A stretch of 64,000 bases of DNA, taken from NCBI RefSeq assembly GCF_003018255.1, contig NZ_CP027440.1; one strand, given 5' to 3'. Source of the DNA: Escherichia coli (lineage in GTDB: Bacteria; Pseudomonadota; Gammaproteobacteria; Enterobacterales; Enterobacteriaceae). The position numbers were made by a program. Shown one piece after another: positions 57,501 through 60,500 of this stretch. The stretch's first letter is position 1. Each line of letters starts with the position of its first letter.

Positions 57501-60500
57501 ATCACAAGATAATGGTATGTGCCCGGGAATGCACCTGCTTTATGTAGATGCGTTGATTTTTTGGATAAAAAAAAAGCAATTGTAAGTTTTTCATCACATT
57601 TAATAGATACTTTAAGTCTGATAACATACTGTTTTAACTAGCTATATGCCGGATTTGTCTGCCTGCTGAAAACTATGCCTTAGCCACCAGCACAATAATC
57701 TTACAAAAGGTCATATAAGAATAAATAGATGTTAATAATACAATGGGTTTGTAACGCGAGTATTTAAATATAATATTGCGAGCTAAGTGAAAACGTTAAG
57801 TAATTGAAATAATCTTTCATTAAAAGCGTTTCTTATTGATCGAGAATTAAGTTTTCTATTTAATGCAAATAAGTTAAGGATAAACTGGAATGAAATAAAG
57901 TGAGCGATATTGTTTACCTGAGAATAATCGGTGAGAAGCAGGGCTATATTTCTTCAGGCTGTGGGACGTATGCGTCGGTTGGTAATTGCTGGCAGGTTGG
58001 CCATGAAGATGAAATTTTTGCCTTTGCACTCACCAACGCCATTACCAGTACTGGTAAAGGCGTTAATCTACAGGGGCTACAATTTTGCAAACTCATTGAT
58101 AAAAGCTCACCGCTACTGTCTAATGCCATCAATCAGAATGAGCGGTTATTTATTGAAATCGATTTGTATCGTATAAATAAAAGCGGGCGCTGGGAACGGT
58201 ATTATTATATTCAGCTAAGAAATGCTTCATTAACTGCTATTCATGTAAACATTTCTGACAATAATCTTCCTACCGAATGTATAACTGTCGATTATGACTA
58301 CATATTATGTAAACATCTAATAGTCAATACGGAATTTGACTGGTTGGCCTTTCCTGCTGGCTATAATAGCTTATTTATTCCGCCTAAAAGCCCACCTGCC
58401 AGTAATCTTAAGCCTGAACCTCTACCAGTTGTTAACCTTCCACTCTCTTCACCAGCGGTTAACCCGGTCTATGCAAAATCCTGTCTGAAGGAGAAGGGAT
58501 GTACAGATGCTGGAACGGCAGAAGAACCCGCTGAAAACTTCGGTCAAGTAGCGATTTTTGCTCAGCCAGTGGTTGATGACTGCTGTGGATACCACCATCC
58601 CGAGGCTAACGATGTCGGGCAACCCGCAGAAGCTCAAACCATGCTACTGTTTCCGGGTAGTGTGTTGGCGGCTCAAATATGGGGAAAATGGTCGCTCAGT
58701 GGCATACTCAGTGCAACCCGCGGCTCTTACATCGGTGCGTTGGCATCTGCTTTGTATATTCCCTCTGCGGGCGAGGGCAGTGCTCGCGTGCCCGGACGTG
58801 ATGAGTTCTGGTATGAGGAAGAACTGCGGCAGAAAGCACTAGCAGGCAGTACCGCCACCACCCGGGTACGTTTTTTCTGGGGAACTGACATTCACGGCAA
58901 GCCTCAGGTGTATGGTGTTCATACGGGTGAAGGTACGCCGTATGAAAACGTCCGCGTGGCGAACATGCAGTGGAACGAGCAGACGCAGCGTTATGAATTT
59001 ACCCCCGCTCACGATGTCGATGGCCCCCTGATTACCTGGACGCCGGAAAATCCGGAACATGGGAATGTTCCGGGCCATACCGGTAACGACAGGCCGCCGC
59101 TGGATCAGCCCACCATTCTGGTGACGCCGATTCCGGACGGCACCGATACCTATACCACGCCGCCATTCCCGGTTCCTGATCCGAAAGAATTCAACGATTA
59201 TATTCTGGTTTTTCCGGCGGGATCCGGTATTAAGCCCATCTATGTTTACCTGAAGGAGGATCTGCGAAAGCTGCCTGGTGTTGTAACAGGGCGCGGCGTC
59301 CCGCTTTCACCAGGAACTCGCTGGCTGGATATGTCGGTATCCAATAACGGCAACGGCGCACCAATCCCGGCGCATATTGCTGATAAATTGCGCGGACGGG
59401 AGTTTAAAACCTTTGATGAGTTTCGCGAGGCGCTGTGGCTGGAGGTGAGTAAAGACTCAGTGTTATTGGCGCAGTTTATAAAAAGTAATCAGAATAACGT
59501 TAGTCAAGGATATTCCCCCTATGTCCCTGAGGAGGGGTATTATTACGGACCAAATGAGATAGTTAAGAAATTCCAGATACATCATGTAGTTGCTATAGAA
59601 CATGGTGGTGGAGTGTATGATATTGATAATTTTAGGATTGTTACGCCCCGACTACATGATGAAATTCACTACAGGAGATAATGTATATGCGTGATTTAAA
59701 AGATAAAATATATTTTTACACAGAAGGTGAATTTCTTGAAATGCTTGAGGAGATAGTAAATGCAACTAGCAAAGATAAATCCCTAAAAGGGAAAAAATTA
59801 GAAAAATATCTCGATACCTTAGTGGATCATTTCATTAAAATTACTGAACATCCTAAAAAGGGAGATCTCATTTTCTATCCTAATTCCCAAGAAGATGGTG
59901 AACCTGAAAACATCCTGAAAATCGTCAAAGAATGGCGGCGTTCACAGGGGCTACCCTTGTTTAAAGACTCTAAATAAAGTAGATAATAAAACTATATATG
60001 AAACATCATCGCGTCTGGCTAATGCGATGATGTTAATAACATAAAATAATAATATGGTTGCTCTTAAAAAACAGGTAAAAAATACTGAAATCATTTTATC
60101 AATTTCTCGCGTTCACCGATACCCTTTGGCTGGAGGTGAGTCAGTATCCGGAGTTGATAGCGCAGTTTTCAAGTGGTAACCAAACACGTATAAAACAAGG
60201 ATTAACCGCAAAAGCACCTCTTGAAGGTTGGCGTTATGGCCCTAAAGAAATCGTTAAAAAATTCCAGATACATCATCGTGTTGCAATTGAATATGGCGGC
60301 AGCGTATACGATATTGATAATTTACGAATTGTTACCCCCAGACTACACGATGAGATTCACTACAGGAGATAAATATGTTTAAAGAAAAGCTCGAAGATTA
60401 TACCGAGGAGGAATTTCTTAATTTTTTAGGCGGATTGAGATCAACTATGAAAGATGGAAAGCCCTTAAAAGGTAAGGAGCTAGAAATGTACTGGGATTCA

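Follow-up and report, generated by a model that had tools for sequence, protein, structure and literature searches.

A variable proline-rich spacer between the Hcp fold and the nuclease cargo of a usp allele in Escherichia coli

The usp locus and the domain map of its product

The stretch of DNA analysed here (the window) comprises 64,000 nucleotides of an Escherichia coli genome. The open reading frame at 57900-59681 is an allele of usp and shows no substantive difference from published Usp, whose architecture has been described together with its island PAIusp between aroP and pdhR (PMC7142922) and which, as Hcp-ET3-4, corresponds to UTI89_C0121 (PMC6730261). The present locus shares the aroP-pdhR position, the combination of Hcp, S-type pyocin and colicin-type nuclease, and the three immunity genes. 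The RefSeq coding sequence WP_096121979.1 has the same start and end as our open reading frame and is annotated 'TssD'. The features of the locus are as follows, with coordinates, strand and supporting evidence.

56001-57374, minus strand: aroP, one flank of PAIusp (ORF; RefSeq)
57900-59681, plus strand: usp (uropathogenic-specific protein, Hcp-ET3-4), specialized Hcp effector (593-aa ORF, GTG start)
57900-58352, plus strand: Hcp (TssD) fold, residues 1 to about 151 (PF05638, TIGR03344, AF2, Foldseek)
58353-58382, plus strand: junction motif PAGYNSLFIP, residues 152-161 (conservation in Hcp-toxin fusions)
58383-58463, plus strand: variable proline-rich spacer, residues 162-188, core of the segment 58380-58469 (alignment, AF2, entropy)
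58464-58592, plus strand: Cys-containing motif, (T)PVYAKSCLKEKGCTDAG..NFGQ..DDCCGY, residues 189-231, start of the cargo cassette (86% mean pairwise identity)
58593-58673, plus strand: second variable segment, residues 232-258 (34% pairwise identity)
58674-58823, plus strand: conserved segment preceding the domain for inner-membrane translocation (IMT), residues 259-308 (80% pairwise identity)
58824-59249, plus strand: Pyocin_S (IMT) domain, residues 309-450 (PF06958, E = 1.9e-40)
59277-59672, plus strand: colicin/pyocin-type HNH DNase, residues 460-591 (PF21431, Col-Pyo_DNase, E = 3.4e-43)
59687-59977, plus strand: imu1, cognate colicin/pyocin-type immunity gene, RefSeq 'bacteriocin immunity protein' (PF01320, E = 2.3e-28)
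60136-60372, plus strand: orphan DNase C-terminal fragment 1 (Pfam match to the last ~70 positions of Col-Pyo_DNase; RefSeq)
60375-60668, plus strand: imu2, immunity gene after fragment 1 (PF01320; RefSeq)
60826-61065, plus strand: orphan DNase C-terminal fragment 2 (Pfam match to the last ~70 positions of Col-Pyo_DNase; RefSeq)
61066-61356, plus strand: imu3, immunity gene after fragment 2 (PF01320; RefSeq)
61779-62576, plus strand: pdhR, other flank of PAIusp (ORF; RefSeq)

The imu1 reading frame, which starts at 59681 or 59687 and ends at 59977, lies immediately downstream of usp, and a repeat unit of about 690 bp occurs in three copies in the region of the DNase fragments and immunity genes. 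The gene is common: a 97%-identical protein cluster has 2,755 member sequences, and among 5,426 complete E. coli genomes 1,046 carry at least 80% of a 4-kb island query. No structural genes of a type VI secretion system (T6SS) were found in the 64,000-nt window, and usp is an orphan locus. For related Hcp-ET proteins, secretion and the killing of other bacteria have been reported to depend on the T6SS (PMC6730261), and T6SS dependence would extend to this usp allele by analogy with them.

The N-terminal part of the protein is a genuine Hcp fold. Pfam PF05638 covers residues 28-139 (E = 3e-13), TIGR03344 aligns residues 1-145 with profile positions 1-159 of 167 (120.6 bits at a cut-off of 58.9), and Foldseek matches the domain to the Hcp structures 6a2v and 3he1 with TM values of 0.82-0.93. 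Related stand-alone Hcps of 151-159 aa stop at about query residues 150-154 and therefore lack residues 161-190, and solved Hcp structures likewise terminate before the spacer. The segment thus lies where the sequence-only reading had placed it, between the Hcp domain and an extension on the C-terminal side. The junction PxxYNxLFIP was present in all three of the Hcp-toxin classes sampled (pyocin-type, TLNS-type and DUF2235/Tle1-type) and absent from stand-alone Hcps.

The extension beyond the Hcp fold is about 430 aa long and carries Pyocin_S and Col-Pyo_DNase domains, in agreement with the definition of Hcp-ET proteins as having more than 60 aa, with a toxin domain, C-terminal to an Hcp core of ~160 aa (PMC8262886). 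The Pyocin_S region, a domain whose role is inner-membrane translocation (PMC9040868), matches PDB 3mfb by sequence and is placed directly upstream of the colicin-type HNH DNase, which is the cargo arrangement of nuclease bacteriocins. The DNase domain matches the colicin E9, klebicin G and pyocin DNase structures by sequence and, by fold, with TM of about 0.92. For residues 152-308 no family model was found in Pfam (E up to 10) or NCBIfam (E up to 1). The columns P189, V190, K193, S194, C201, F214 and G215 are invariant in Hcp-, VgrG- and PAAR-fused proteins, and the core PV[YF]AKSC..GCTDAG..NFG is present again in 26 divergent representatives. The VgrG- and PAAR-fused versions have long insertions at the position of residues 232-258. 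Since the cargo that begins at PVYAKSC occurs fused to VgrG and PAAR via different linkers, the spacer belongs to the joint between carrier and cargo and not to the cargo.

Composition, conservation and predicted structure of the spacer

The translation of 58380-58469 on the plus strand is PPKSPPASNLKPEPLPVVNLPLSSPAVNPV, corresponding to residues 161-190 of the 593-aa ORF. The earlier description of these residues as low-complexity and proline-rich is borne out. Proline accounts for 10 of the 30 residues (33%) versus 8.1% in the whole protein, and at least 10 prolines in any 30-residue window occurred in 0.57% of 20,000 shuffles of the protein (p about 0.006). Its entropy is 2.71 bits, where the mean is 3.56 +/- 0.22, and it ranks first, that is lowest, among the 564 windows of 30 residues. 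A reading of the segment at the level of DNA was rejected, as a search for tandem DNA repeats at 58380-58469 found none and an Rfam search of the same interval on both strands gave no match. The overlapping ORFs in other frames were short and without support.

In order to place the boundaries of conserved and variable parts, we used an alignment of 59 sequences that includes Hcp-, VgrG- and PAAR-fused proteins. On the Hcp side, P161 hardly varies and forms part of the junction motif YNxLFIP; on the cargo side, P189-V190 are invariant and open the motif PVYAKSC. This confines the truly variable spacer to residues 162-188. No position within it is invariant across the 59 sequences, and P172 alone is well conserved (at least 90%). 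Mean pairwise identity, computed by region on 37 Hcp-fused homologs, was 36% for the spacer, 71% for Hcp, 86% for the Cys motif, 80% for both residues 259-308 and Pyocin_S, and 34% for residues 232-258. In the same 37 homologs the spacer is 22-27 aa long, and Pro makes up 32.5% and Gly 0.3% of it (the linker of P0058 is 27 aa in the alignment; a regular expression gave 36 aa, its junction pattern matching too early). Over 46 distinct homologous linkers the average is 33% Pro. A linker contains on average 3.4 PxP and 2.5 PP, and the mean net charge is +2.6. The source genera, where named, are Escherichia, Salmonella, Citrobacter, Kluyvera, Superficieibacter and Pseudocitrobacter. These data show that selection has kept the composition (about one third Pro, net positive, almost no Gly or aromatics) and the length of 22-27 residues, and has not kept the sequence.

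Linker lengths were also compared among Hcp-extension homologs, as the sequence-only reading had proposed. A homolog search with residues 1-200 returned mostly truncated or frameshifted fragments and was used for the comparison of cargo classes only. Length tracks cargo class: 22-27 aa with 33% Pro in the pyocin type, and 16-19 aa with 18% and 7-15 aa with 15% in two others.

An earlier AF2 run on the 59 close homologs had a mean pLDDT of 46.9; it says nothing on the linker, because the known Hcp and Pyocin_S domains also scored low. We then based our inference on a model from 130 sequences, with the alignment enlarged by stand-alone Hcps and divergent representatives of the cassette. In this model the Hcp domain has pLDDT 84-95, the junction 152-161 about 68 and the DNase about 90. 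There is no secondary structure from residue 153 to 189; the segment has pLDDT of 32-42, and for residues 163-187 all values stay below 50 and DSSP assigns no element; the model accordingly does not place the segment in a folded domain, the outcome that would have counted against a linker. The spacer is thus predicted not to fold. Low confidence extends past residue 190 over much of 188-300, despite the strong conservation of 189-231 and 259-308: the motif at 189-231 has low-to-moderate confidence, residues 232-258 have pLDDT 22-41, and residues 259-308 are predicted to form short strands, with modest confidence. The linker may be just the variable stretch within a larger non-globular region holding conserved motifs.

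The word 'flexible' in the earlier claim is doubtful. Proline-rich, glycine-poor sequences with PxP and PP are typically extended, relatively stiff and polyproline-II-like. One third Pro, almost no Gly and frequent PxP and PP suggest that the spacer is of this extended and fairly stiff kind.

Alternative explanations of the segment

The first alternative is that the segment is a neutral junction scar, an unconstrained leftover where toxin cassettes recombined onto an Hcp gene, which is tolerated and whose proline richness has no function. Its position fits, at a module boundary where YNxLFIP is common to Hcp fusions with unrelated cargo and the classes diverge directly afterwards; usp is compositionally mosaic, and the spacer has the lowest identity of the compared regions except residues 232-258. 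However, 46 distinct linkers, drawn from several genera, hold to a length of 22-27 residues and about one third Pro while the residues change, and neutral drift would erode both. The systematic difference in linker length between cargo classes also argues against a scar. The linker as a recombination seam was rejected, as the composition boundary is not there: GC3 is 0.26 in the spacer and 0.40 in the Cys motif, rises no earlier than near residue 232 and drops again near residue 520, so the spacer is no obvious recent seam. The rise of raw GC across the linker is due to CCN proline codons. We consider a scar unlikely.

A second alternative is that the segment is a recognition element. It could, for example, be cut by a protease so that the delivered toxin is set free, serve as a PxxP-type ligand of an SH3 domain in the host, or be bound by an import factor of the periplasm or inner membrane. 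The frequent PxP and PP would suit such a role, Usp is reported to be genotoxic to mammalian cells (PMC7142922), and nuclease bacteriocins are cleaved during import and bind TonB, LepB or FtsH (PMC9040868). In those bacteriocins, however, processing and partner binding map to the IMT and nuclease region and not to an N-terminal linker (PMC9040868). The absence of any invariant position in 162-188, with P172 the sole well-conserved one, and the unrelated linkers of the VgrG- and PAAR-fused versions of the cargo further argue against recognition, which we regard as very unlikely.

That the segment extends the Hcp fold or gives the N-terminal strand or strands of a structured cargo domain is hardly credible, given its 33% Pro, hypervariable sequence and indels, the lack of secondary structure in the informative AF2 model and the end of solved and stand-alone Hcps before it, even if the 59-sequence run could not discriminate and the conserved flanks 152-161 and 189-231 might become folded when bound and take some of the spacer with them.

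Proposed role in T6SS loading and comparison with known systems

We consider it probable that the segment is an unstructured proline-rich interdomain spacer, probably polyproline-II-like, that joins the Hcp fold to the nuclease cargo and serves in T6SS loading. The assignment as a linker, taken alone, is very likely, while for the role in loading the arguments are about evenly balanced. The link drawn in the sequence-only reading between the spacer and accommodation on or in an Hcp ring is a plausible and reasonable inference.

The spacer joins the C-terminal end of Hcp to a cargo of ~404 residues (Cys motif, IMT/Pyocin_S and HNH DNase). At about 3.1 A per residue it could span about 75-90 A and hold the bulky cargo off the Hcp beta-barrel, so that the Hcp domain would still be able to join a hexameric ring. 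The height of an Hcp ring is about 40 A. The ring would probably consist of one Usp and five ordinary Hcp subunits; the size limit of the ring has been described and one Hcp-ET per ring proposed (PMC13323088), and the dimensions of the T6SS tube have been described (PMC10433429). For T6SS firing, the cargo might be housed inside the lumen, either of its own ring or of rings next to it, or be kept away from the ring in some other way. Once delivered, the IMT domain and DNase would act as in nuclease bacteriocins. A literature search on where the C-terminus of Hcp lies within the ring gave nothing usable.

Of the T6SS, Hcp-ET and Usp papers that were searched for the word, none mentions a linker for Usp or for Hcp-ET proteins. 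The closest precedent is Vibrio cholerae VgrG1, with a region of about 40 residues and 35% Pro between the VgrG spike and the actin cross-linking domain (PMC8406194). The two are alike in composition, position and presumed role, each being a proline-rich stretch through which an effector is fused to a structural component of the T6SS. They share no sequence homology, and the Usp spacer, at 22-27 aa, is the shorter of the two and lacks a run of six prolines. VgrG is moreover the spike tip, with its cargo outside the tube, whereas Hcp forms the tube, where lumen and sheath restrict space.

The DUF2235/Tle1-type and 'TLNSKGVGRLLAAGG'-type Hcp-ETs have a homologous Hcp and PxxYNxLFIP, followed by a short, low-complexity, proline-containing stretch; their linkers have 16-19 and 7-15 aa with 18% and 15% Pro, respectively, compared to 22-27 aa and 33% in the Usp type. 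A likeness beyond secretion is the spacer of TonB, which is rigid, proline-rich and periplasm-spanning, of the form (Glu-Pro)n(Lys-Pro)n. The alternation of X-Pro with K, E, A or V, e.g. PAPPKPAPVKPPSPPAPK in Kluyvera homologs, is similar, and both would presumably form an extended polyproline-II rod. The TonB spacer has no homology to that of Usp, is longer and more regular, and belongs to another biological setting.

A more specific reading of the spacer is that of a length-tuned 'ruler'. With a reach of roughly two Hcp ring heights, it would let one Usp thread its ~44-kDa cargo from the C-terminal face of the ring into the lumen of neighbouring rings, and its length would co-evolve with cargo size (7-15, 16-19 and 22-27 aa). 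We think this rather unlikely; if true, Usp would be a simple genetic handle on the loading of oversized cargo into the T6SS tube.

The segment alone matters little. The gene has long been known, proline-rich linkers between T6SS carriers and effectors have a precedent in VgrG1, and the segment is a real but ordinary spacer. What is useful is the precise map of Usp, with Hcp to about residue 151, the fusion-specific junction at 152-161, the spacer at 162-188 and the cargo from the invariant PVYAKSC; the observation that linker length and proline content track cargo class among Hcp fusions; and the joining of one cargo cassette to Hcp, VgrG and PAAR by different linkers. The domain map and the linker data provide concrete constructs for asking how a tube subunit carries a cargo of this size, a matter that recent reviews and structural work have called under-explored (PMC13323088, PMC10433429).

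The proline-rich segment and its locus

The segment at 58380-58469 (+) translates to PPKSPPASNLKPEPLPVVNLPLSSPAVNPV, residues 161-190 of Usp (uropathogenic-specific protein, Hcp-ET3-4), and contains 10 prolines in 30 residues, compared to 8.1% proline over the whole protein. At least 10 prolines in any 30-residue window occurred in 0.57% of 20,000 shuffles of Usp, and the entropy of the segment (2.71 bits vs 3.56 +/- 0.22) is the lowest of all its 30-residue windows. Translation, proline count, shuffles and entropy therefore bear out the low-complexity proline-rich stretch that the sequence-only reading had placed at residues 161-190; its boundaries are correct within two residues at either end, the spacer proper being residues 162-188 in the alignment. 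No tandem DNA repeat was found at 58380-58469, and Rfam matched neither strand of the island (PAIusp).

Features of Usp and of the island
57900-59681: usp ORF, 593 aa, GTG start
Usp residues 1-145: TIGR03344 (NCBIfam)
Usp residues 28-139: T6SS_HCP (Pfam)
58464-58592, Usp residues 189-231: Cys motif, start of the cargo cassette
Usp residues 199-590: match to the NCBIfam model of the Vibrio T6SS DNase effector VPA1263
Usp residues 309-450: Pyocin_S (Pfam)
Usp residues 460-591: Col-Pyo_DNase (Pfam)
60136-60372: second toxin tip, orphan fragment
60826-61065: third toxin tip, orphan fragment, degenerate-looking

A RefSeq CDS with identical ends, labelled 'type VI secretion system tube protein TssD', is present in the complete E. 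coli genome NZ_CP116067.1, where the island region 57700-61700 is 100% identical. That genome also has ~1.8 kb between araC and yabI (4387217-4388761), an IS630 transposase remnant and two hypothetical genes, missing at window ~8266-8286; elsewhere in the stretch compared, which reaches window ~50,000, the two are collinear, with 98.4-99.8% identity. The island query of 4 kb is covered to at least 80% by 1,046 of 5,426 complete E. coli genomes. It is flanked by aroP and pdhR, the position that defines PAIusp, which bears usp and imu1-3 (PMC7142922). Outside the island, the window matches the order of ordinary core genes (polB-ara-thi-leu-dcw-secA-guaC), and no T6SS structural genes were found in it, so usp is an orphan effector locus. 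On every testable criterion the allele belongs to Usp/Hcp-ET3-4.

A colicin/pyocin immunity gene follows usp on its 3' side, and after it come two units that each pair an orphan DNase C-terminal fragment with an immunity gene. The toxin-tip/immunity repeat unit of ~690 bp, each copy a DNase C-terminal tip with an immunity gene, occurs three times within 59402-61459, the usual layout of displaced tips at polymorphic toxin loci. The Pfam match of the third tip ends at profile position 112 of 124, and its RefSeq label is 'hypothetical protein'. GC3 forms a mosaic (57900-59978): Hcp, spacer and Cys motif have ~0.26-0.40, residues 232-520 have 0.52-0.59, and the DNase tail (521-593) and imu1 have 0.33 and 0.29. 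The boundaries fall near residues 232 and 520, the latter coinciding with the start of the repeated tip/immunity units.

Conservation of the spacer and its flanks

The alignment comprised 59 homologs, 37 Hcp-fused (source-named ones from Escherichia, Salmonella, Citrobacter, Kluyvera, Superficieibacter and Pseudocitrobacter) together with VgrG- and PAAR-fused proteins carrying the same cargo, the ~404-residue cassette that follows the spacer. The Hcp part of the fusions closes with a conserved PxxYNxLFIP, in which P161 is nearly invariant. Stand-alone Hcp relatives (151-159 aa) end at about Usp residues 150-154, and therefore are without this junction motif and everything downstream of it. At least three unrelated cargo classes of Hcp-toxin fusion have the motif, P(A/E)xYNxLFIP (58353-58382, residues 152-161), which may serve as a structural exit element or be a recombination joint that they share.

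Spacer length across the 37 Hcp-fused sequences ranges from 22 to 27 residues (median 27), and proline makes up 32.5%; V, A, K, T and S account for most of the rest, glycine is at 0.3%, and aromatic and acidic residues are almost absent. Linkers average 3.4 PxP, 2.5 PP and a net charge of +2.6. Mean pairwise identity was 71% for the Hcp domain, 36% for the spacer (162-188), 86% for the Cys motif (189-231, Hcp fusions), and 80% for both residues 259-308 and Pyocin_S. Keeping length and composition, not sequence, is what would be expected under selection for physical properties, not specific contacts.

Linker lengths among Hcp-extension homologs, a comparison that the sequence-only reading had proposed, were measured from the junction proline to the first class-specific motif. 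The longest and most proline-rich linker belongs to the pyocin/IMT cargo, the ~404-residue cassette with several conserved parts. A single 36-aa linker in this class was a pattern-matching artefact and is left out of its range.

Distinct linkers by cargo class
Pyocin/IMT: 46 linkers, 22-27 aa, Pro 33%
DUF2235/Tle1-like: 9 linkers, 16-19 aa, Pro 18%
TLNSxxxGRLLAxGG: 10 linkers, 7-15 aa, Pro 15%

The Cys motif opens at P189-V190, as (T)PVYAKSCLKEKGCTDAG...NFGQ...DDCCGY, and is common to the Hcp-, VgrG- and PAAR-fused versions, with several columns invariant across them. Its core, PV[YF]AKSC..GCTDAG..NFG, was found again in 26 divergent representatives after other low-complexity linkers. No Pfam or NCBIfam domain model covers residues 189-231; a metal knot, a disulfide knot and a delivery/import motif are candidates. 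A second hypervariable segment follows (58593-58673, residues 232-258; 34% identity, pLDDT 22-41), where insertions tens of residues long, among them a basic ..VVQHAQSAKKRKP.. element, occur in the VgrG- and PAAR-fused homologs. Another stretch of 10 prolines in 30 residues lies within the Pyocin_S/IMT domain (59094-59183, residues 399-428); its sequence, in contrast to that of the spacer, is conserved (72% pairwise identity), yet AF2 puts most of it below pLDDT 50 (388-402, 410-424).

Structure prediction and alternative explanations

With the 59 close homologs, AF2 gave a mean pLDDT of 46.9 and scored the known domains low too, so that the low linker score carries no information. Enlarging the alignment with stand-alone Hcps and divergent cassette representatives to 130 sequences gave a mean of 71.4. 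In this model the ten-residue block means are 84-95 over Hcp residues 1-150 (one block 69), 68 for 151-160, and 42, 32 and 42 over 161-190, residues 163-187 being below 50; no secondary structure is predicted from 153 to 189, and the DNase domain is at ~90. Foldseek confirmed the Hcp fold (6a2v and 3he1, TM 0.82-0.93) and the colicin E9 DNase fold (TM ~0.92). The model does not place the segment in a folded domain, the outcome that would have spoken against the sequence-only reading. Confidence is low to moderate for the Cys motif and stays low through much of 188-300, despite strong conservation of 189-231 and 259-308; there may be a longer non-globular region that has the spacer as its variable portion and conserved motifs that bind something.

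A neutral recombination scar would fit the position at a module boundary, but it is quite improbable, since length and composition are both maintained and GC3 steps up near residue 232, not at the spacer. Less probable still is a specific binding or cleavage motif: 162-188 has no invariant position, only P172 being conserved at 90% or more, and the cargo has unrelated linkers when fused to VgrG or PAAR. Part of a folded domain is disfavoured by sequence variability and indels, by where stand-alone and solved Hcps end, and by the AF2 model.

Proposed role of the spacer

The segment is a proline-rich spacer of constrained length, predicted not to fold, at the joint between carrier and cargo. VgrG and PAAR fusions join the same cargo by different linkers, which also contain proline. 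One-third proline without glycine is typical of an extended, fairly stiff polyproline-II-like chain, not a floppy tether. From its composition, the Usp spacer is probably such a chain, which argues against the 'flexible' linker proposed from the sequence.

At ~3.1 Å per residue the spacer could span ~75-90 Å; the Hcp ring wall is ~20 Å thick and the lumen ~40-45 Å wide (PMC13323088; PMC10433429). It would hold the ~44-kDa cargo and bound immunity protein clear of the Hcp beta-barrel and ring interfaces, and would let the cargo sit in the lumen of its own ring or of neighbouring ones. The latter fits the recent proposal that no more than one Hcp-ET, beside five ordinary Hcps, can be part of a ring, and that a large cargo can take up two stacked rings (PMC13323088). 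Once delivered, the IMT (Pyocin_S) domain and HNH DNase would be expected to act as in nuclease bacteriocins, by analogy (PMC9040868).

The segment resembles the linker region of V. cholerae VgrG1, with 35% proline (PMC8406194). The T6SS, Hcp-ET and Usp literature searched, a set outside which the original Hcp-ET paper falls, makes no mention of a linker in Usp or Hcp-ET proteins. The segment is an unremarkable linker between domains of a known protein. That it is a length-tuned 'ruler' for lumen loading is unlikely.
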